A stretch of DNA of 64,000 nucleotides. It comes from an uncultured Nitrospirota bacterium. Lineage in GTDB: Bacteria > Nitrospinota > Nitrospinia > CAJXCL01. Position numbers and translations under genes: made by a program. Below the pieces are notes generated by a model that did not search any database, was not told the origin of the DNA, and saw nothing but the letters and a program-made list of their open reading frames with translations. The DNA is taken from the NCBI GenBank assembly GCA_913051775.1, contig CAJXCL010000006.1, positions 7,447 to 71,446 of the forward strand, given 5' to 3'. This document shows, piece by piece, positions 54,267 to 64,000 of the stretch. Every line of letters begins with the position of its first letter. Within the stretch, counting starts at the first letter, position 1.

Positions 54267-54435
54267 AGTATGCTATTAATTTTATATTATAAAAAATAAT
54301 AATCAACCCCAATATAGAATTTTAAAAATTCTATATCGGGTTTTGCGTTTTAATCTAAATGATTTGGACACGCTCGACATTATGTTGACAATTGAATTGG
54401 ATTAAAATATTTTAGTGTTTTTGGAGGGTACTAAT

Positions 54436-54672
54436 ATGAATGAAACACATTTTGACATAGAATTAAATTGTAGGGGTTTATCCTGTCCATTGCCTATCGT
54501 TAAAACAAAAATGGCTATTTCAAAATTGAGGGAAGGACAGGTGCTTAAGATAATTTCTACAGACCCCGGGACCAGAGCTGACATGGCTGCATGGTCTTCC
54601 AGAACCGGCCATGAAATTATAATGTCTGAAAATAATAACGGGGAATACATTTTTTATCTTAAACATAAATAA
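54436..54672 (+). CDS. TusA family sulfur carrier
   Basis: LNCRGLSCPLPIVKTK, STDPG. Confidence 0.92.
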   Translation: MNETHFDIELNCRGLSCPLPIVKTKMAISKLREGQVLKIISTDPGTRADMAAWSSRTGHEIIMSENNNGEYIFYLKHK

Positions 54673-54673
54673 C

Positions 54674-54907
54674 TTAAACCTTTTTTTGGACTATTATATG
54701 CCAATCGGTACTGTTTATCTTTATTACTTCCAAAACCTTATGCCCTTCGTTTTCCATACTTCCGGGGACATTTTTCGTAGCAGGCTCATGGTCAATAATT
54801 ATTTTAAGAATTTTTCCCGCATCCATTTCTTCAAGCGTTAGTTTAGACTTTACAAAAGTATAAGGACAAACCTCTCCTTTTATGTTAATTGTTTTATCCG
54901 GTTCCAT
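54674..54907 (-). CDS. TusA/YeeD family sulfur carrier
   Basis: IKGEVCPYTFVKSK, DHEPA..NVP. Confidence 0.9.
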   Translation of the reverse strand: MEPDKTINIKGEVCPYTFVKSKLTLEEMDAGKILKIIIDHEPATKNVPGSMENEGHKVLEVIKINSTDWHIIVQKKV

Positions 54908-54922
54908 GTATTAATTTCTATC

Positions 54923-55174
54923 CTATACACAAACAACTTTATCGGTAGAAAAGATTATATTCAGCATTTCCTTATAATCTATTGCTTGATTCTCTGTGTT
55001 TATTTTACATAAATCCGCGTCTTCTTTAAGAACTTTTACTTTATCTATTTTCCTCAGTTTTTCTAGGCAAACGGCGTTTTGGATTAAAATTGCCTCATGA
55101 TTTTCTTTTTTTATATCGAAATATTTTAAAAATGGAGAATCAGGGTTACGGATAATAAAAAGAGATTTTTTCAT
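54923..55174 (-). CDS. DsrH/TusB-like protein
   Basis: ILIQNAV, VLKEDA, IDYKEMLNIIF..DKVV. Confidence 0.72.
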   Translation of the reverse strand: MKKSLFIIRNPDSPFLKYFDIKKENHEAILIQNAVCLEKLRKIDKVKVLKEDADLCKINTENQAIDYKEMLNIIFSTDKVVCV

Positions 55175-55182
55175 TTTATTTA

Positions 55183-55521
55183 TCAATGAATAACAACATT
55201 TGCCTTATCAAGAAGATCAATAAACTCAGGGGGCTTAATACTTTGATATTTAATATTATTAGAAATAGAGAAATTGCCCGCATCTTCTACATAAAACTTT
55301 GCATCCAATTCCGCCAGCATTTTAACATGTTTGAAAGCAGGTTTCATATTGGCCTTTGATTTATCCAGTTCCTGCAAAACATGACATGAATTTCCTAAGA
55401 ACACGAGATTTAAAATATTTTCATCATTTAAGGTTAAACCCACGGCAAGGCGAAGCTTTTCTAAAGCTTTGTTTGTTTCAAAGGTATAATCGGAAAAAAT
55501 AATAAAAATGCTTTTGGTCAA
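55183..55521 (-). CDS. DsrF/DsrE-like protein
   Basis: EKLRLAVGLT, LVFLG, FYVE, ANVVIH; between DsrE and DsrH. Confidence 0.62.
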   Translation of the reverse strand: MTKSIFIIFSDYTFETNKALEKLRLAVGLTLNDENILNLVFLGNSCHVLQELDKSKANMKPAFKHVKMLAELDAKFYVEDAGNFSISNNIKYQSIKPPEFIDLLDKANVVIH

Positions 55522-55594
55522 ATTCCCTCCTAAACGCGTAAAAATTTTGCTACGAAGTATTTTGAGATTCGTATTTTATTAAATTCCAATGAGA

Positions 55595-55909
55595 TTATAT
55601 AAACGCAATATACCTGTCTGTTTCATTAGCGATAAAGGCATTGTCATATTGGCTTCCGTATTTAAATCCTTGGTATTTATAAGCATGAAGCTCATCCGCG
55701 CTATGAGTACAAACCGTCACCTTAACTCTCTTATCTTTAGCAAGTTCTTGAAGGGATTCGTTTGTCCCGTTAAGCGCTCCCTCATGCATCAGAAAAAGTT
55801 CAACTTCTATACCCTCTTTTACTGCTGCCGACGAAAGACCAATAGCTGAAAGGGTATCCTGGCTTTCAGGTCCCTTAAAAAGCAGTATTCCAAGTTTTTT
55901 CTTTTTCAT
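55595..55909 (-). CDS. DsrE family sulfur relay protein
   Basis: LGILLFKGP, VELFLMHEGA, VTVCTHSA (conserved Cys), GSQYD. Confidence 0.8.
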   Translation of the reverse strand: MKKKKLGILLFKGPESQDTLSAIGLSSAAVKEGIEVELFLMHEGALNGTNESLQELAKDKRVKVTVCTHSADELHAYKYQGFKYGSQYDNAFIANETDRYIAFI

Positions 55910-55912
55910 AAA

Positions 55913-56242
55913 TCAGGGACCTTTATCAAGTTCAGGCAAGATAAACTGTTTTTCAATTTGGGTAATCTCGCTAACTTTTTCCACAATAGTTTTCATTTTT
56001 ATTTTTAACGGCTCAAAATAAAGGCTGATTTTTCTTTCATTTGCTTTAAAGCGAGCTGAATTGACACCCTCCAATTTTTTTAACTCACTGGCTATCATAT
56101 CCTTACCCATAATACAGCAGATATTATTTTTATCGAAATTGATTGTTAAGCGTTTTTCATCCGCTTGTGCATGGGATGCAACTACAAAAAACATCAAGAA
56201 CAAAAGACTAATCTTAAAAATCCGCTGCTTTAGCCACATCAT
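55913..56242 (-). CDS. Secreted HMA-like (heavy-metal-associated) domain protein
   Basis: Signal peptide, NICCIMG then ELKKLEGVNSA..ISLYFEP ferredoxin-like pattern; start uncertain. Confidence 0.55.
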   Translation of the reverse strand: MMWLKQRIFKISLLFLMFFVVASHAQADEKRLTINFDKNNICCIMGKDMIASELKKLEGVNSARFKANERKISLYFEPLKIKMKTIVEKVSEITQIEKQFILPELDKGP

Positions 56243-56636
56243 CTAAATCCATCTCCAATTGTTTTGCGACTTTCATCATTGCTCTTGGCTGAAATAAAGC
56301 CGCGAAAGCTGTAGGTTTTAAATAAGAAATGTAAATCGTATTTTCATTTTTCGGCTGGTAAACCACTAATCGGACAGGCATAAAGACGCCTGCTCTCAAA
56401 TCCGACGAAACAACTTCATTGCAATTTATGAGATTGCACATTTCGATAATCTTATAATGCTGAAACCCTATGCTTAATTTATCTACCAGTGCGGCTTTTT
56501 CTTTTATGTTATCAACATTTACAATTTTTACAATGCGATAATTTTTTAATTGGGCTTCTTTGATTAAATTTTCTATTATTTCACCAAAATCAGCTTTTTG
56601 AAAAACGTGAGTTACAATATCTTTGTTGATGTCCAT
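56214..56636 (-). CDS. DUF302 domain protein
   Basis: YKIIEMCN, AGVFMPVRLVVY, ISYLKPT. Confidence 0.8.
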   Translation of the reverse strand: MDINKDIVTHVFQKADFGEIIENLIKEAQLKNYRIVKIVNVDNIKEKAALVDKLSIGFQHYKIIEMCNLINCNEVVSSDLRAGVFMPVRLVVYQPKNENTIYISYLKPTAFAALFQPRAMMKVAKQLEMDLDDVAKAADF

Positions 56637-56668: not shown

Positions 56669-57814
56669 CTATTTCATCATAACTAATTTTTCTGTTTTTT
56701 CATTCCAGACTGCCAACCAATACCAGAGATACATAATTCCAAAAACAAATAACAGAGCAATCAACCAGCTATTGAAGATATCAGGGAGAAATACCCTTTT
56801 AAAATAAGAATATTCAAATACCAGTTGCAATATTACATGAGTGCCCGCTGCTGAAAGGGAAAATGCAAAAACAGCCAACCATGACTTCAGTTGACCTTCT
56901 CCGGAGCGCCATAGAGACCCTGAAGCGCAACCTCCGGCGAGAACCATTCCGATAGCAAATATAAAGCCTCCTATAACAGCAGGCAATCCCGCTGAAGGGG
57001 CTATTTGAACAGTAAAATCTTTAATTCCGGAAAATTTTAAGATAGAAAAACCAGAAATACAAATTAGAAAAGCCGTAACAACCGCTTTTATCATCTCTCC
57101 CTCCCCGGTCAAAAAAGGTTCTCTAAAAGCCCGCACAAAGCAGAATCTCGATCTCTGGTTTGTGATTCCTAAAATCACGGCCAGGCAGAAAATAACACCC
57201 AGAACATTTAAATCCAGATAGTCGTAATAATAAGGAATTAACAACAGACCGGTAACTACTACAGAAATGCCTGAGTAAATTTGAAGCAGGGGAGGGGGGT
57301 AAAAAGCTTTTCCACTTTTGACCGGCTTTTTTTCAGATCTTCTCATGTCCCATATCAAATAATTAAGACCTGCAATTGTGCCGATAAGCAGACCTAACAT
57401 CATGAATAAGCCGCTTCCTGATAGGGCGCTGATGGAACTAAAAAATCCGCCTATGGTGCACCCCCTGGCAAAATTTGCCCCAATTCCCATTAATATACCC
57501 CCCCAAATACCTTTCATTGCTTCTTTAAGAGGCGGTATTTGTATGCTGAACTCTTTTGCCAGCAATGCAGAGCCAAAGGCGCCAAACAAAAAAGCCATAT
57601 CCATTACTGAGCTGGTATGTTCCAGAGGAGATATTTGTGCAACATCTGGAAAATTTGGAATGAACTCAAGCAGATGCAGTCCCCAATTTCGTAATCCCGA
57701 GAAAATAGACCAGGGACTGTCAAAGGCAAACATCATGGTATTGACAAATCCAATAAGCAAAGCGCCAATAAATGGAGACCACTGGCTTTTAAAAAGGCTT
57801 TTCCAGATTTCCAA
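56669..57814 (-). CDS. YeeE/YedE (TsuA-like) sulfur-compound transporter
   Basis: ARGCTIG, QRSRFCF, AGGCASG three-Cys motifs; multi-TM. Confidence 0.92.
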   Translation of the reverse strand: MEIWKSLFKSQWSPFIGALLIGFVNTMMFAFDSPWSIFSGLRNWGLHLLEFIPNFPDVAQISPLEHTSSVMDMAFLFGAFGSALLAKEFSIQIPPLKEAMKGIWGGILMGIGANFARGCTIGGFFSSISALSGSGLFMMLGLLIGTIAGLNYLIWDMRRSEKKPVKSGKAFYPPPLLQIYSGISVVVTGLLLIPYYYDYLDLNVLGVIFCLAVILGITNQRSRFCFVRAFREPFLTGEGEMIKAVVTAFLICISGFSILKFSGIKDFTVQIAPSAGLPAVIGGFIFAIGMVLAGGCASGSLWRSGEGQLKSWLAVFAFSLSAAGTHVILQLVFEYSYFKRVFLPDIFNSWLIALLFVFGIMYLWYWLAVWNEKTEKLVMMK

Positions 57815-57829
57815 TTATGATACTTTCTG

Positions 57830-58174
57830 TCAGGAGAATTTAATTTCTTTAGAAGCTTTAAACGTTTCGTTTTGATTGCTTTGAAAAACAACTTTCAGAG
57901 TTGCTTCCTTATCCGCTTTTAAAGGGAATTCGATTCTTGGATTCTGGCTTACGGCAGAGGACATTAAAAAAGTACAAACTTTTTCTTTACCGTAAAATAC
58001 TTCCATTTCTTTTAGATATACTGCCGGTTCTTTTCTGTAAAAATCATCCGTATCTCCTATAGTTGCCAGGCCTGTAATAGAAGGGTATTTTGGCTGTACA
58101 GCTACATTAATAATATCCCCTTTTTTAATTTTCCTCGGCAGTTTAATTTTAGGAGGTTTTTTTTTTCTTGCCAC
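57830..58174 (-). CDS. SoxZ-like protein
   Basis: KKGDIINV..YPSITG, SSAVSQNPRIEF, LKVVF; no signal peptide; GTG start right after the SoxY-like gene. Confidence 0.78.
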   Translation of the reverse strand: MARKKKPPKIKLPRKIKKGDIINVAVQPKYPSITGLATIGDTDDFYRKEPAVYLKEMEVFYGKEKVCTFLMSSAVSQNPRIEFPLKADKEATLKVVFQSNQNETFKASKEIKFS

Positions 58175-58175
58175 T

Positions 58176-58640
58176 TTAGCACCCTCCGCCGACAATTCTA
58201 ATCATCGCATCTCCAACCCACCGTCCATGTTTACTGCAAGCTATCACAGCGTAAACTGTGGTAGTACCTGCTGCCATTCGAGTCTGGAACTTCAAATGTG
58301 GTCTTCCATTTTGTGGAGAAAATAAAAATCTCCCTTTTGTCGTAATAGGATCTGATAATACAATAACATCAACACTTTCAACAAAATGATCCTTTTCCAT
58401 AGGATGATCGAGAGTAAGTTCTATGGGTACAAATCTACCGTCTTCCGCAACCATCGGAATTTTAAGTTTGGGTGTATGAGTTTTTTCCAGCCCTCGTAAA
58501 TTATCTATATCCTTTGCTTTTTGAATGTCATCAGGCAAAGCTATAGCAGCAGCAAGTTTGGGGTCTACTTTTCCAAGAAAGGACATCGTAAACAGACCAA
58601 TGCTTACATGTTTAACAAAATTTCTTCTATCTAATTTCAT
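58176..58640 (-). CDS. Tat-exported SoxY-like protein with desulfoferrodoxin/SOR-like metal motif
   Basis: DRRNF Tat motif; P.VAEDGRFVP (SoxY-like); EKTHTP, HPMEKDH, CSKHG; C-terminal GGGC. Confidence 0.75.
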   Translation of the reverse strand: MKLDRRNFVKHVSIGLFTMSFLGKVDPKLAAAIALPDDIQKAKDIDNLRGLEKTHTPKLKIPMVAEDGRFVPIELTLDHPMEKDHFVESVDVIVLSDPITTKGRFLFSPQNGRPHLKFQTRMAAGTTTVYAVIACSKHGRWVGDAMIRIVGGGC

Positions 58641-58675
58641 AGGATATTAATAATAATTTAACCGATCTCTATTCT

Positions 58676-59026
58676 TTATTTATTCCATTTTTTAATAAGT
58701 TCCGATAATATTTTAGTTTCTTCTTCCGTAATGTTCTTGGTCGCCGGCATTCCTTCTTCATATTTTTCAGGATATCGTGTTTTTTCTTTGGAAACGCCCT
58801 TTAAAAGCATCTCGTTAATGGTCCTGACATCGTATTTTCTAATAAAATCATTGTTTCGAAGCGACGGGGCGTCTCCTCCGCCTTTAGCGTTTCTACCATG
58901 ACACTCGGCGCAAGCATTCAGGTAAATCATCTTAATGTTTTTATTCGGAAATATTTCAGCTGCTGAAATAGATGTTGGTAATAAAAAAACACCGCAAAGA
59001 ATAAAGATGACTACAAATCGATTCAT
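58676..59026 (-). CDS. Periplasmic monoheme cytochrome c
   Basis: Signal peptide, CAECH, APSL, GMPA axial Met. Confidence 0.88.
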   Translation of the reverse strand: MNRFVVIFILCGVFLLPTSISAAEIFPNKNIKMIYLNACAECHGRNAKGGGDAPSLRNNDFIRKYDVRTINEMLLKGVSKEKTRYPEKYEEGMPATKNITEEETKILSELIKKWNK

Positions 59027-59050
59027 ATTACAGCACTCTAATAATTATAT

Positions 59051-59275
59051 TAGTGCCTGACCGAGAAATGTCCCCCTTTGCGGTCATTTCGAGCCCTTAT
59101 AGTCATTCTAAGAGAGCCAAGCTACTGAAAAATTCTCGTTCAGGACAGACCTGGCAAGGCTCTTCAAAAGGCTCACGATGAACTCTGTGAGAAACCTAGT
59201 GAATTAAAATATTAAGGTTAAAGATTTCTCTCTTCCGTCGAAATCACAAATACTGAGCTTTTCGTTCCTGCACTA
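59051..59275. mobile_element. Degenerate MITE-like/REP composite element
   Basis: Imperfect TIR tagtgcctgaccgagaa / ttttcgttcctgcacta; internal gtcatttcga...tcgaaatcac and gagaaacct...agatttctc arms. Confidence 0.5.
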
Positions 59276-60130
59276 TTTGCCGGACAATGGTGTCGGTAAC
59301 GCGTGATGGGGTTCTCCATCTACACTCATGCTATGGATTACTTCATTAGTATTAGCATCGATCTGGTGCAGCATTCTACCAAAAGTTTCTGCAACCCAGT
59401 ATGATTTGTTGTCCGGCATTAAACCTATATTGCATAATCCTTCCGCGTCTTTAATCTCGATGCTTCCAACCTCTTTTTTACTCTTGGCGTCATAGATTCC
59501 CACTCTGCTTTCGCCCCTCAAAGTCACCAGTATACGTTTTTTATCGGGTGAAAAAGCTACGCCGTGAGGATTTTTCCCTACTTTAAACTCTCCAACCTTT
59601 TTTCTATTTTTCCAGTCGACAATTGAGACTTTATTCCCGCTGCCGCCAGCCACGTAAACATTTCCATCTGGACCAAAGACAAACTGGTGAGAATCACTTG
59701 GCGTCTTGATAATATCGTATTTCCCGGTTATCCGGTCCAAAACAATAACTTTTTTATTCTGACTGGCAGAGATTACGTGTTTTCCGTCAGGCGCTACAAG
59801 GATTCCACAATTTTTAGTTGTTTCAGGAATTGGAAACCATTTACTAACGCCCTTTTTGGCAATATTATATTCCACAATATCACCCGGAGGCATAGCGTTC
59901 ATATATAAATATTTTTTATCCGGAGACATAGCTACCCCGTGAGATCCCAGTATAGGCAATGGCGAATAAGATACAACGGTTTTTGTTTCCGGGTTGATAA
60001 GAGCCATTTGTTTGGTTTTATCAAGAATTACGCGAATAAGGTAATCAGGTTCAGCGTGTACCGTAATTACAGAAGCGATCATAGAAAAAATAAAAATAAA
60101 TACAGACAAAACTGCCGTTTTTTTTAACAT
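59273..60130 (-). CDS. Secreted YncE/YVTN-type beta-propeller protein
   Basis: Signal peptide; six repeats such as HGVAMSPD, CGILVAPDG, HQFVFGPDG, HGVAFSPD, CNIGLMPD. Confidence 0.85.
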   Translation of the reverse strand: MLKKTAVLSVFIFIFSMIASVITVHAEPDYLIRVILDKTKQMALINPETKTVVSYSPLPILGSHGVAMSPDKKYLYMNAMPPGDIVEYNIAKKGVSKWFPIPETTKNCGILVAPDGKHVISASQNKKVIVLDRITGKYDIIKTPSDSHQFVFGPDGNVYVAGGSGNKVSIVDWKNRKKVGEFKVGKNPHGVAFSPDKKRILVTLRGESRVGIYDAKSKKEVGSIEIKDAEGLCNIGLMPDNKSYWVAETFGRMLHQIDANTNEVIHSMSVDGEPHHALPTPLSGK

Positions 60131-60230
60131 TTTTTATCTCTCCAAAAAATAAATTATTGAAAAAAACTTTATAGCTAAAATTTTTTTAATTAAAAATCAC
60201 CCCTTTCTCTGTTAATTTGTTATATAGTAA

Positions 60231-60345
60231 GTAAGCCTGCCTTAAAAAACGAGGTATCAAAGGAAATGAGAGGGATTGCATCCCCCTTGCCCTCGCTCTG
60301 CATTCATCCCCGCCATAAATAGCTGGATATTCTGCGATTATTTCA
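60231..60345. mobile_element. Probable IS200/IS605-family end remnant
   Basis: gcattcatccccgccataaatagctggatattctgcg subterminal hairpin resembling IS605-type ends; no transposase. Confidence 0.4.
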
Positions 60346-60437
60346 TAAAGCGGCCAATGGGTCGCAACCAAATAGGGCTTCCGTCCTGGCAAAAAAACTT
60401 TCTCAAAAAAGAAGTTTTTACAGTTTATAGCATAAAG

Positions 60438-60830
60438 TTAAGATTTTTTCGAGATCGATCTTAAAAAGTTTATTATGTCCCAAATCTCATTATTCTTAAG
60501 GATCAAGCCAAATGGAGGCATCTCAAACCATATACCTCCGTTTTTGATTTTTTGAAATAAAAAACCATCTGAAATGTCGGCAATCGTTCCGTCCGTAAAA
60601 TCCCATGGAACCACTTCAAAACTTTCAGCAGAAGGTCCATTCCCATCCGCTTTTTCTCCATGACAAACGGAACATTTTTCAAAAAAAAGCTTATTTCCAT
60701 TTGAAATAGATTTTGAGTCAGCGGCTCGAGGATTTTTAATTGCGTCAACATCGATTTCTTTTTCTTTGGCGTAACTAAAACAGGTTAAAATAAAAAAGAC
60801 ACCAAGAGTTAAGGCGATTAATCTCATCAT
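60438..60830 (-). CDS. Periplasmic monoheme cytochrome c
   Basis: Signal peptide, KNP..GNKLF..CSVCHG..DGNGP, SDG.LF.KI.NG, MPPF. Confidence 0.9.
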   Translation of the reverse strand: MMRLIALTLGVFFILTCFSYAKEKEIDVDAIKNPRAADSKSISNGNKLFFEKCSVCHGEKADGNGPSAESFEVVPWDFTDGTIADISDGFLFQKIKNGGIWFEMPPFGLILKNNEIWDIINFLRSISKKS

Positions 60831-61051: not shown

Positions 61052-61849
61052 CTATGCAAGTGAACTCCCCGTACGCATGGTGTTCTGCTCTGCGGTGAGA
61101 TAGATGATCTGATTCATACGAAAGACCTTGTCATATAGGTCTTCCTTTATGTACTGGGAATGAAACACCCGGGCGTCGAAGATGGCTAATCTATTGGGCT
61201 TCATCTCCACGAGTTGCAGCAATTCCCAAAACTCATTTCCATCGTTGATATAGTTATTCCCCTTGGCGGCGAACAAGGGGTTGAAGATCATACTGCGTTG
61301 GAAGTTTTCATAGCCTTCCTCTGTTTGAAAGAATTCGTTACTCAGTTCGAGTCGCTCGGCCAATTGCCAAACCTCTTGATCCGGCGTGATAGGGAGCCTT
61401 GGCAGCCGTTCTAAATCTGTCGGACGATGGCGATAGAGTGCGGTTCCTCCGGTAGAGGACTGCTCAGGATTCAGATAGATCAATGCGGTAATATCCGGGT
61501 CTATGTGTGGTGCACGCTGCCCGATATTGAGTCGGTAGTCCATTGTGGTTAGGGCTTGAAAAACGGCTAACTGGGGTTGAAAAAACGAATATAGCTGCGA
61601 TCCCCAAAGTTGACTTATTGCGTTGATAACGGGTTCGGTACTTATATTGATTTGCGCTCGACGTCCGGGGAAGTTTCCGGTGAGATCATAATGGTCGGTA
61701 TAGGGCAGTTTGGCTATAACCTGTAGAATCTTTTCCAGGTCCTTATAGAAATTATCAACCAGGACTGCTTTATGCTTCCCCTTGCCAACGTATGCTACTT
61801 GACTCTTTAAATTAGGGTTAATCTCTAGGAGGTCATCATTTATTTCCAC
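61052..61849 (-). CDS. DUF6445-like 2OG-Fe(II) oxygenase-fold protein
   Basis: VDNFY, FPGRR, PHID, LIYLN, GGTALYRH, NRLAIF..FHS. Confidence 0.75.
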   Translation of the reverse strand: MEINDDLLEINPNLKSQVAYVGKGKHKAVLVDNFYKDLEKILQVIAKLPYTDHYDLTGNFPGRRAQINISTEPVINAISQLWGSQLYSFFQPQLAVFQALTTMDYRLNIGQRAPHIDPDITALIYLNPEQSSTGGTALYRHRPTDLERLPRLPITPDQEVWQLAERLELSNEFFQTEEGYENFQRSMIFNPLFAAKGNNYINDGNEFWELLQLVEMKPNRLAIFDARVFHSQYIKEDLYDKVFRMNQIIYLTAEQNTMRTGSSLA

Positions 61850-62388: not shown

Positions 62389-63624
62389 TTACAACATCTT
62401 TTGTGCCACGATTTCTAATCCTTGAAATTTTAAAGAGAGATTGCAACCGGGGTACTTGCTGTAAGCATCCGTTTCATCTTTGTATTCGTTGGAGTCTAAA
62501 TGTGTGACTTTAAATCCGGATTGTTTGATGTCAGAGATAAGGGTTTGACAGAAATCATCTTCAATTTCAATGAGGGATTCTAAGTAACCGGAAGTCAACT
62601 TTTTTTTGAATTCAGCATCATCTGCCTGACGCAGAATTCGGAGTTCCACGTCAGTATCCAAAATCTCAAGTATTCCGTCAGGTTCAAGACTTTCCCAAGC
62701 CCAGCGAAGGAATTTTTTCCTTTCCATTCGTTTTAAATGATGCATGAATTTATTTGACATAATTAAGCCGAATTTTAAATTTTGCGGGGCTTTGTCCGGG
62801 AAATCGGCATCAAGGATTTCAATGTTCCGCTTGCCCAACATAGTTTTGTAATGAGTGAGGCATTGGAAGATGAAGGGCATGCAATCGGTTAAAACCAGCC
62901 TGGGATAATTTCCAGGCCAGTTAAAAATCACTCTAAGGCCGGCCAGGCCGGTTGCTACATCCATCAGAGACTGGTTCAGGTTGCGGGGCTTAGGCTCAAC
63001 TGGATTTTGCCAGGGGAAATTCTTTGTCTCAAACACGTAATAGCTATAACATTCACTCAACAATCTTATGATTTCCGGGTCTTTATAAAACAGAGGATCT
63101 TTTCTAAGGGTCAGGGCCAGTTGCTGAAATAGGAAGTCCATCTTGCGGTTCAGCGACACCAGTTGTAGATTTGCTTTCACTACTCTACCTGATGGTTCCG
63201 TAACTCTCCGTCTATCGTGAACAGAAGCGGCGCCTGATAAAGGAACTCTTGGATTCGTTGGAACCGCCGGATTCCCAGATGTTTCAGGTTCGAAGAAATC
63301 ACCATACTCTTTTTGCAGGTTTTTATTGATGAGATCAAAATTTAATAATACTGATAGTCTTTCGTGCTGAAGATAAACCAGGTCAGCCAGGTCAATCATC
63401 ATTTCCGGGTAAATAGCGCACAGCAGCGTATTGAAACACTCCTGGTATTCCATTCCCTTTGGAGTATCGGCAAATCCCAGTAATTTATTCAAATGCTCAA
63501 ATAGAGCTTTTGCCCGTATATCCAGCACAGGTAAAAAGGAATTTTTTAATCCTAAAAAGGATCTTCCTCTACCGGTCAGTAAAGGAAGTTTATCCGAAGT
63601 TTTTACAAAAATAGGGCAGTTCAA
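62389..63624 (-). CDS. Class I SAM-dependent methyltransferase domain protein
   Basis: LMDVATGLAG, FMHHL, LEPDG.L.ILD; likely TTG start at 63624 after AAAGGT SD. Confidence 0.72.
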   Translation of the reverse strand: MNCPIFVKTSDKLPLLTGRGRSFLGLKNSFLPVLDIRAKALFEHLNKLLGFADTPKGMEYQECFNTLLCAIYPEMMIDLADLVYLQHERLSVLLNFDLINKNLQKEYGDFFEPETSGNPAVPTNPRVPLSGAASVHDRRRVTEPSGRVVKANLQLVSLNRKMDFLFQQLALTLRKDPLFYKDPEIIRLLSECYSYYVFETKNFPWQNPVEPKPRNLNQSLMDVATGLAGLRVIFNWPGNYPRLVLTDCMPFIFQCLTHYKTMLGKRNIEILDADFPDKAPQNLKFGLIMSNKFMHHLKRMERKKFLRWAWESLEPDGILEILDTDVELRILRQADDAEFKKKLTSGYLESLIEIEDDFCQTLISDIKQSGFKVTHLDSNEYKDETDAYSKYPGCNLSLKFQGLEIVAQKML

Positions 63625-63628
63625 ATCA

Positions 63629-64000
63629 TTACCTTTGTTTGGCATATATCTGGGGCAGTCGATTAGTTCCGTACTTTGAGATATAGAGGAAAACATGTTC
63701 GCGCGCGTTGATCCGCACAGCCCAGGGTTCGAAATCATTGCGATAGATATCTTCGGAAAGCTCCATAGCCTCCATACAGGTGATGCCTATCGGCTTGTTA
63801 AGTGTGTAATAGTAGTCGAGCGGTATATCATATTCGTCCTGCTTGTGAATCGTGATTCCGAACCTCTCCGGGTTTTGAACAATCGGCGAGTGGCGATACG
63901 CAACAAAATTAGACATTTCAACCGAATGAATGTTTTCCTTATTTTCAAGAAGGAACTCTCGTGTCTCCCCGACCTCTTCCCTAGTTTCTCCGGGGAAGCC
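63629..64000 (-). CDS. C-terminal part of a B12-binding-type radical SAM protein (truncated by window edge)
   Basis: Frame is open to the window end: GFPGETREEVGETREFL..SNFVAYRHSPI..NPERFGI. Confidence 0.75.
   Translation of the reverse strand, partial: GFPGETREEVGETREFLLENKENIHSVEMSNFVAYRHSPIVQNPERFGITIHKQDEYDIPLDYYYTLNKPIGITCMEAMELSEDIYRNDFEPWAVRINAREHVFLYISKYGTNRLPQIYAKQR

Follow-up and report, generated by a model that had tools for sequence, protein, structure and literature searches.

Can one small exported protein be a sulfur carrier and an iron protein at the same time? The question is raised by a gene in a 64,000-nucleotide (nt) stretch of DNA, hereafter the window, from an uncultured Nitrospirota bacterium placed in the Nitrospinota by GTDB (assembly GCA_913051775.1, contig CAJXCL010000006.1, positions 7,447 to 71,446). 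Its product, called here SOR-SoxY, combines features of SoxY and of superoxide reductase (SOR), i.e., of two proteins that are treated as unrelated, the one a metal-free sulfur carrier in its canonical form and the other an iron enzyme of oxidative-stress defence. The balance of the evidence leans, if not strongly, towards SOR-SoxY being a SoxY-type carrier that is exported by the twin-arginine translocation (Tat) system and probably contains iron. Its single immunoglobulin (Ig)-like domain would have descended from a periplasmic, Tat-exported SOR (Tat-SOR), and would hold a SOR site at one pole and an arm ending in Cys154 at the other.

SOR-SoxY passes the Pfam cut-offs of both families. It scores 59.5 bits on SoxY (PF13501; cut-off 28.4, E 4.4e-16) over residues 58-154, which exceeds its 41.8 bits on Desulfoferrodox (PF01880; cut-off 22.2, E 1.6e-10) over residues 51-142. 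Because these matches lie on the same residues, they represent one Ig-like domain and no fusion, and "fused", as the original prediction had it, is the wrong word. What that prediction had listed, i.e., all five positions of the His4-Cys pattern together with SoxY features in one 154-residue Tat substrate, is present down to every string it quoted. A phmmer search of PDB sequences ranks the Ignicoccus hospitalis SOR first (4bk8; E 3.3e-5). H55, H79, H85, C135 and H138 align with its columns H..HPxxxxH..CxxH, i.e., with H25, H50, H56 and the CxxH pair, the iron ligands of that enzyme. The second match is a Thermus SoxY (4uwq_B; E 1.1e-4), with the GGC of which the terminal GGC is aligned. With hhalign, the SOR-SoxY family matches canonical SoxY at E 6.6e-35 and Tat-exported SOR at E 2.1e-28, and the latter two match each other at E 5.9e-10; judged by these alignments, the family is intermediate between SoxY and SOR. 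The comparison of folds that had been suggested along with the prediction gave the same picture: the structure model has an Ig-like fold, superposes on SOR across 115 residues, and resembles a solved SOR and a solved SoxY equally well. SOR-SoxY is a single domain that shares ancestry with both, and SoxY and SOR are homologous, as linked by this family.

Within the domain, the features of the two families form a mosaic. On the SOR side are the segment AKDxxNLxxLEKxHxP and the motif CxKHGxW, on the SoxY side VAEDGRxVP and V-GGC; HPMExDHYI is matched in both families, its SoxY counterpart being SPMTxxDYV. The hairpin motif VAEDGRxVP corresponds to the canonical SoxY consensus PxIAENGxTVP, and no motif of this type is present in the Tat-SOR alignment. 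The C-terminus (R148 to C154) reads RIVGGGC, with Cys154 directly preceding the TAA stop codon. The residues E52-K53-T54-H55 show the same E-K-x-H register as the five aligned Tat-SORs, with their consensus LEKKHxP. The N-terminus, MKLDRRNFVKHV, comprises the twin-arginine motif DRRNFVK, a hydrophobic stretch and AAA/AIA, after either of which cleavage is likely. R5 and R6 are identical in 20/20 aligned family members, and the structure model shows a low-confidence helix in this region. Tat export had been thought to fit a cofactor-loaded protein. A cofactor cannot be argued from it, however, since RR signals are found as well in canonical SoxY proteins, which are metal-free.

If the site is in use, its residues should be conserved. 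All 15 close homologues (56-99% identity) have both Pfam domains. In their alignment with SOR-SoxY, H79, H85, C135, K137, H138, G139, R140, W141, G152, G153 and C154 are identical in 16/16 sequences and H55 is found in 15/16, the lone exception being a fragment truncated at the N-terminus. At 32-84% identity, H55, H79, C135, G152 and C154 are still identical in 20/20 sequences, and H85 and H138 are retained in at least 90%. A profile search of 1.84 billion representatives yielded 588 matches at E ≤ 0.001. Among the best 150 of these, the five ligands are accompanied by a Cys as the last residue in 8, by a Cys plus three residues in 1, and by an arm Cys with a long C-terminal extension in 12, most of which, where scanned, match Pfam SoxZ. 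In another 16, the five ligands are present and the arm column is unaligned; these are SoxZ fusions and true Tat-SORs with a Desulfoferrodox match only. The others are 33 canonical SoxY proteins with two ligands or fewer (class D), 4 proteins with an arm Cys and three or four ligands, 64 fragments, and 12 sequences of other kinds.

Relatives are also encoded by 174 stretches of genome contigs. The best 80 of these loci comprise 35 with five ligands and a terminal Cys, 25 with five ligands, an arm Cys and a fusion or C-terminal extension (which is SoxZ in most of the comparable representatives that were scanned), and 1 with five ligands and a Cys plus three residues. Three have an arm Cys and one ligand changed, and 5 have five ligands and no aligned arm (three classical SORs, one misaligned and one truncated sequence); 9 are partial and 2 are of other kinds. 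Ligands and arm Cys thus occur together in 61 of the 80. According to their record titles, these loci come from Nitrospinota, SAR324, Gammaproteobacteria/Arenicellales, Nitrospirota, Rokubacteria/Methylomirabilota, Anaerolineales and Entotheonella. The original prediction had staked itself beforehand on the conservation of the ligands in homologues, and they are kept, together with the SoxY features, across phyla.

These data also bear on the possibility that SOR-SoxY is an ordinary metal-free SoxY in which the His and Cys residues are an evolutionary relic or bind a structural metal such as zinc. Canonical SoxY functions without a metal, some canonical proteins ending in GGCGG (P0060 and P0074) still score 29 bits on Desulfoferrodox, and part of the ligand set is lost in P0017, P0021 and P0028 among the representatives and in L041, L072 and L073 among the loci. 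A site without use would be expected to decay, but 5/5 ligands persist in 61 of the 64 complete arm-bearing open reading frames (ORFs), at roughly 30-45% identity to the query and across the seven groups named above. This is the pattern expected of a used site and not of a relic, and the canonical SoxY clade, with its 33 class D rows, did lose the ligands. We therefore regard a metal-free SoxY as unlikely.

How the family relates to its two neighbours was addressed in a quick maximum-likelihood tree of 73 chosen rows (21 unfused ligand-bearing proteins, 3 with partial ligands, 11 fusions, 28 canonical SoxY proteins, 5 Tat-SORs and 5 signal-less SORs) and 102 columns, rooted with the signal-less SORs. 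The Tat-SORs are basal, and a node with a value of 85 in the Shimodaira-Hasegawa-like approximate likelihood-ratio test (SH-aLRT) unites two clades, canonical SoxY (99) and the whole set of ligand-bearing arm proteins (84). With modest support, the ligand-bearing arm proteins would be the sister clade of canonical, ligand-free SoxY, with the Tat-SORs below both.

Where does the arm lie relative to the putative iron site? The strands of the model comprise residues 58-60, 64-67, 71-76, 87-93, 101-106, 115-120, 125-135 and 139-151. H55, H79/H85 and C135/H138 are located at strand ends on one pole; the other pole has the VAEDG hairpin (67-70) and the point at which the last strand gives way to G152-G153-C154. 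Since C135 and H138 sit in a hairpin that is followed by the continuous 13-residue strand 139-151, predicted to span roughly 40 Å, the GGGC arm would exit at the pole opposite the putative iron site. Judging from this geometry, Cys154 should be about 25 Å or more away from the iron site of the same subunit. The picture of an iron beside the carrier Cys thus lacks support within one subunit.

The partner of SOR-SoxY is probably the product of the adjacent soxZ-like gene. SoxZ homologues begin at an aligned MARK/MAKK, which here corresponds to a GTG (58174) one base past the TAA of soxY, whereas the TTG at 58195 chosen by the ORF finder would overlap soxY by 20 nt. Thus, soxZ probably encodes 114 residues from the GTG and not the 121 of the TTG-started ORF. 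On the minus strand of window positions 58150-58215, the arm codons GGC GGA GGG TGC hold a GGAGG 8 nt upstream of the GTG; together with the position of the GTG one base after the stop, this suggests translational coupling of soxY and soxZ. In a complex prediction with Y residues 34-154, iron included, and Z as the partner, the score was 0.92 vs. 0.12 for the best control, and this mark is reached by 58/80 solved complexes and 2/110 mismatched pairs. Between runs, at least 97% of the contacts are shared, with a predicted local distance difference test (pLDDT) value of at least 88 for the partner. Both poles contribute to the predicted interface, that of the arm with residues 69-71 and Cys154 and that of the iron with M81 and residues 107-113. 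Because SoxYZ structures have already been solved, the pass may reflect only the likeness to SoxYZ. Nevertheless, the idea that a signal-less SoxZ accompanies SOR-SoxY agrees with its place directly after the gene and with the predicted binding.

The two genes are part of a minus-strand cluster (Table 1) in the order cytochrome c (143 residues), beta-propeller, cytochrome c (116 residues), SOR-SoxY, SoxZ, YedE-family permease, DUF302 protein, HMA-like protein, two DsrE-like proteins, an 87-residue ORF and TusA. The second tusA gene is on the plus strand, and the remainder of the window is devoted to housekeeping.

Table 1. Features of the SOR-SoxY gene and its surroundings (window coordinates; aa, amino acids).
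Feature	Position	Strand	Remarks
SOR-SoxY gene	58176..58640	minus	154 aa, ATG start; candidate Tat-exported SoxY-type carrier with the SOR centre II ligand positions
Twin-arginine signal peptide	58536..58640	minus	residues 1 to about 35; RR at 5-6
E52-K53-T54-H55-T56-P57 (EKTHTP)	58470..58487	minus	H55 is the putative first ligand; aligns with ETHTP of 4bk8
PMVAEDGRFVPI (P62..I73)	58422..58457	minus	SoxY-specific hairpin motif
H79-P80-M81-E82-K83-D84-H85 (HPMEKDH)	58386..58406	minus	putative second and third ligands; codons checked by eye
C135-S136-K137-H138-G139 (CSKHG)	58224..58238	minus	putative axial Cys and fourth His ligand
G151-G152-G153-C154	58179..58190	minus	swinging arm; Cys is the last residue
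soxZ-like gene	57830..58174	minus	no signal peptide; Pfam SoxZ 49.4 bits; adjoins SOR-SoxY downstream
Secreted monohaem cytochrome c (CAECH), 116 aa	58676..59026	minus	directly upstream of SOR-SoxY; order kept in L007 and L008
Secreted YVTN/YncE-type beta-propeller, 285 aa	59273..60130	minus	Pfam YNCE 31.1 bits; TIGR03866 72.5 bits, under the cut-off
Secreted monohaem cytochrome c, 143 aa	60438..60869	minus	orthologue of the cytochrome downstream of soxZ in relatives
YedE/YeeE-family sulfur permease, 381 aa	56669..57814	minus	Pfam Sulf_transp 176.6 bits; under the NCBIfam TsuA and YedE cut-offs
DUF302 protein	56214..56636	minus	Pfam 38.5 bits
Secreted HMA-like protein, 109 aa	55913-56242	minus	Pfam HMA 17.6 bits, under the cut-off
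DsrE-like gene	55595-55909	minus	Pfam DsrE 28.9 bits
DsrE-like gene	55183-55521	minus	Pfam DsrE 21.9 bits
TusA gene	54674-54907	minus	Pfam TusA 67.8 bits
TusA gene	54415-54672	plus	Pfam TusA 79.1 bits

Much of this neighbourhood recurs in relatives. Within 6 kb of the gene in 39 unfused relatives, SoxZ is found in 33, the propeller in 30, a cytochrome c in 28, a SoxB-like protein in 27, YedE in 25 and DUF302 in 22, all of which are lower bounds, because many contigs are short. The 143-residue cytochrome c shows 34% identity (E 7e-19) to the cytochrome of locus L018. The SoxB-like protein of the relatives (L009-L031 and others) is a divergent metallophosphoesterase of ~530 residues, usually encoded between soxY and soxZ; the one in L018 (L018:8455-10071) scores 413.5 bits on TIGR04486, with its cut-off of 550. 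No such gene is present in the cluster of the window or in the genome. As suggested by adjacency (54415..56242), the HMA-like and DsrE-like proteins, the 87-residue ORF and TusA may belong to the same system.

Some details of the cluster deserve a separate description. The HMA-like protein, encoded between the DUF302 and DsrE-like genes, has an unusual pair of adjacent cysteines (NNICCIMGKD) and a homologue at the same place in L008; its match to the model "UxxU metal-binding (seleno)protein" is weak (26.6 bits vs. 95). It was considered as a split form of the N-terminal domain that is fused to cytochrome c in relatives, but this was rejected (BLAST E 0.081). The spacers at 59027-59272 and 60131-60437 measure 246 and 307 nt, vs. 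3 and 174 nt in L007, which is 90% identical. The former is single-copy in the genome and matches no Rfam family, and its predicted folding is no better than that of shuffled sequences (z -1.09). Contigs from RNA libraries of two studies depart from the window at 60392 and 60424. Just past the cluster, a DUF6445 protein (75.5 bits) is encoded at 61052-61849 (minus), and a 449-residue ORF at 62389-63738 (minus) has no Pfam match at E ≤ 1e-5.

With the neighbours in view, it can be asked whether SOR-SoxY is a plain periplasmic SOR of the class known as TAT-SOR, with a C-terminal Cys and a SoxZ-like neighbour that have no part in sulfur carriage. This class was described in SORGOdb in 2011, with seven predicted proteins that combine a twin-arginine signal with centre II (PMC3116461), and a "TAT-1Fe-SOR" was reported as highly transcribed in plume Sulfurimonas (PMC10066037). 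SOR-SoxY resembles the class in its signal, its centre II and its N-terminal segment AKDxxNLxxLEKxHxP, and its complete ligand set, its E-K-x-H loop and its passing of the Desulfoferrodox cut-off would all suit a plain SOR. So would the two secreted cytochromes c nearby, which could donate electrons, and the genome, 96% complete, in which no superoxide dismutase (SOD) of the Fe/Mn or the Cu/Zn type was found. A plain SOR is difficult to reconcile, however, with the invariant GGC arm and the SoxY-only VAEDG motif, with a Pfam SoxY score above that of Desulfoferrodox, and with a SoxZ that is adjacent or fused in nearly all relatives, often with the SoxB-like protein nearby. The Tat-SORs that we examined end in ...CNxHGLWE plus about 6-8 residues, with no Cys arm, no VAEDG and a Desulfoferrodox match only (the seven members of SORGOdb were compared by the class description), whereas SOR-SoxY adds the arm, the SoxY motif and the SoxZ partner and falls outside the strict definition of the class.

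A profile search across the phylum points in the same direction. Nine of 120 genomes match at E ≤ 1e-10, and the match extends through the arm only in the genome studied here and in a second one of its genus. Of the seven weaker matches, two were inspected; each is a Tat-SOR that lacks the arm, and the ORFs listed around it include no SoxZ. They are 164 residues (L093:2427-2921, minus) and 158 residues (L094:1811-2287, minus) long, end in ...CN(L/V)HGLWEGTK..., and have HEM instead of HPM. Taken together, we consider a plain SOR improbable.

The neighbourhood also bears on a further possibility, i.e., that the iron centre catalyses sulfur chemistry by acting in trans on the arm of a neighbouring heterodimer, in an oxidative loading like that by haem SoxAX, with the electrons going to cytochromes c. 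Neither the module nor the genome encodes SoxAX, a cytochrome c is nearly always co-encoded, and the SoxB-like gene between those for Y and Z in relatives implies sulfonate adducts on the arm. Within a subunit, however, arm and iron would be at opposite poles, the conserved Glu/Lys loop suggests anion or superoxide chemistry, and the beta-propeller or the cytochromes could load the sulfur instead. Such a catalyst appears quite improbable to us. A similarly long shot is its evolutionary extension, in which SoxY arose from periplasmic SOR and the iron-bearing clade is a haem-independent, self-loading Sox system, the Fe(His)4Cys site of one heterodimer loading the arm of another and passing electrons to cytochrome c. 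If true, this would be new metallo-enzymology of sulfur oxidation in SAR324, Nitrospinota, Arenicellales and Rokubacteria, which are abundant in marine waters and groundwater.

For the reading that we favour, an iron-containing carrier with two separate poles, the following course of events can be proposed. In the cytoplasm, SOR-SoxY would fold, take up iron and bind the signal-less, translationally coupled SoxZ, after which the pair would be exported by Tat. In the periplasm, the arm cysteine would carry sulfane sulfur. In many relatives, the SoxB-like hydrolase, the gene for which is absent here, may trim thiosulfate-derived sulfur. The sulfur could then be handed to the adjacent YedE/SoxT-like permease and, subsequently, to cytoplasmic TusA and DsrE-like proteins. 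This carrier role follows from the SoxY features, the SoxZ, the SoxB-like gene of the relatives and the YedE, TusA and DsrE genes, and it agrees with what has been published on SoxT (PMC11582611). The iron site, too distant for the arm of its own subunit, would be a second and independent site for one-electron chemistry, with the co-encoded c-type cytochromes as its redox partners. Its chemistry is most likely still of the SOR type; it would bind and reduce superoxide or a similar small anion, thus shielding the exposed persulfide carrier in oxic sea water. A retained SOR-type site is favoured because the ligands and the acidic and basic residues before the first His are kept in the Tat-SOR register. 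The genome, in which neither a further SoxY or SOR gene nor an SOD of the Fe/Mn or Cu/Zn type was found, speaks for the favoured reading as well.

Several points weigh against this reading. Metal binding, the cargo of the arm, the transfer of this cargo to YedE and what the iron site does chemically are all things that we infer. The convergence of the five ligands and the distance between Fe and Cys154 are deduced from the alignment with SORs and from strand geometry. The tree came from a quick search that included the ligand columns among its 102, and its key nodes have a modest SH-aLRT of only 84-85. More specialized models of either family are not passed: SOR-SoxY scores 55 bits on SoxY_true_GGCGG (TIGR04488; cut-off 125) and 23.8 bits on neela_ferrous (TIGR00332; cut-off 61.9), it ends in GGGC and not in GGCGG, and it stays under every cut-off of the NCBIfam models SoxY_para_1, fused SoxYZ-like and dfx_rbo. 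Also, the Glu and Lys of E52-K53-T54-H55 are one residue farther from the His than in classical SORs with E-K-H. In the genome, there is no true SoxB (best match 133.8 bits vs. 550, with 27% identity to the SoxB-like protein of relatives), no SoxA (best match 43.6 bits vs. 110), and no DsrA or AprA, which leaves unexplained how the arm would be loaded with sulfur and what would become of this sulfur in the cytoplasm. Furthermore, a periplasmic SOR cannot substitute for a superoxide defence in the cytoplasm.

The genome contains no second SoxY or SOR gene, and matches to the CCG domain (HdrB-like) are present. Its SoxB-type match, a 608-residue ORF, was considered as the missing partner and, given the low identity, rejected; it is taken as a 5'-nucleotidase-type enzyme. 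The sole, weak match to the SoxA family, encoded on another contig of the genome (L006, 663-1373), is a secreted protein of 236 residues with many Cys-rich octapeptide repeats of the ACNPCAKN type around a CWDCH haem motif. A 392-residue ORF with several CxxCH motifs comes next (L006, 1379-2557), and just upstream of the 236-residue protein lies a 98-residue ORF that consists of repeats of the same type.

How does SOR-SoxY compare with known systems? Canonical SoxY, as known from Paracoccus pantotrophus (2ox5), Thermus thermophilus (4uwq) and Chlorobium (2nnc), lacks the set of five SOR ligands that SOR-SoxY keeps, as seen in the 33 class D rows; furthermore, SOR-SoxY has Cys as its last residue instead of GGCGG, and its genome lacks SoxAX and SoxB. 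It differs from the 1Fe SORs or neelaredoxins of Ignicoccus hospitalis (4bk8), Pyrococcus (1do6) and Thermotoga (2amu) by its export, its SoxY hairpin, its Cys arm, its SoxZ partner and the offset by one of its Glu and Lys relative to E-K-H. In the ped cluster of Pseudomonas putida, a fused SoxYZ-like carrier occurs with a beta-propeller and cytochrome c550 (PMC12997753). Like this quinoprotein-dehydrogenase-associated carrier (TIGR04557; PP_2677), SOR-SoxY is co-encoded with a YVTN-type propeller (TIGR03866) and a small cytochrome c (PedF family). However, the proteins of the window match the ped-type NCBIfam models weakly (42.8 bits on TIGR04557, with its cut-off of 140), Y and Z are separate genes here, likely members of that carrier family among the matches, such as P0066, P0107 and P0135, lack the ligands, and there is no pyrroloquinoline quinone (PQQ) dehydrogenase in the window. 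A YeeE-like protein, SoxT, is reported to be required if sulfur that SoxYZ has bound in the periplasm is to be oxidized in the cytoplasm, and direct transfer from the cysteine of SoxY to SoxT is proposed (PMC11582611). The SoxT system and the YedE-TusA-DsrE ("YTD") cluster share with our locus a SoxYZ-type carrier beside a YeeE/YedE permease and TusA and DsrE-like proteins. In contrast to these systems, the permease here cannot be assigned to SoxT, TsuA or YedE by NCBIfam, and no sHdr, Dsr or Apr system was recognized in the genome, which does have the CCG-domain matches mentioned above.

In the literature that was searched, i.e., outside subscription journals and supplements, no paper was found that links SoxY with SOR, desulfoferrodoxin or neelaredoxin, and nothing relevant on periplasmic SOR or on twin-arginine signals with SoxZ. 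The one listed paper with both a Sox term and desulfoferrodoxin has SoxYZ in its reference list only. The searched text of the two TAT-SOR reports (PMC3116461 and PMC10066037) has no mention of SoxY, and a term search of the text of a 2024 survey of the SoxY family gave no mention of iron or Desulfoferrodoxin. Annotation of family members varies between "SoxY", "desulfoferrodoxin (superoxide reductase-like protein)" and "hypothetical protein", and two clusters of 76 and 82 members in an automatic atlas are named [quoted passage not shown]. SOR-SoxY belongs to a widespread, unnamed and unstudied clade, of which no description was found in print.

The locus is also present in the sea. Near-identical DNA was found in marine and seawater metagenomes of at least 10 studies, and the RNA libraries of 4 studies have contigs that extend over the SOR-SoxY gene, e.g., one of 3725 nt over 57073-60797 with zero differences and one of 482 nt over 58182-58663. 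As a hint that the locus is expressed there, these contigs speak for the favoured reading; as RNA libraries may hold DNA, they are no proof of transcription, strand or operon.

A large and phylogenetically wide clade keeps the feature sets of SoxY and SOR together under selection. The inconsistent naming of its members skews metagenomic inferences on thiosulfate oxidation and oxygen tolerance. If iron is bound, carriers of the SoxYZ type would not all be passive, and there would be a testable route for the evolution of the Sox carrier. In that case, the conserved, little-noticed periplasmic module consisting of the carrier, SoxZ, a beta-propeller, cytochrome c, a YedE permease, DUF302 and, often, a SoxB-like protein would be a candidate system for handling sulfur, or sulfur and oxidants, in abundant uncultured bacteria of the ocean and aquifers.

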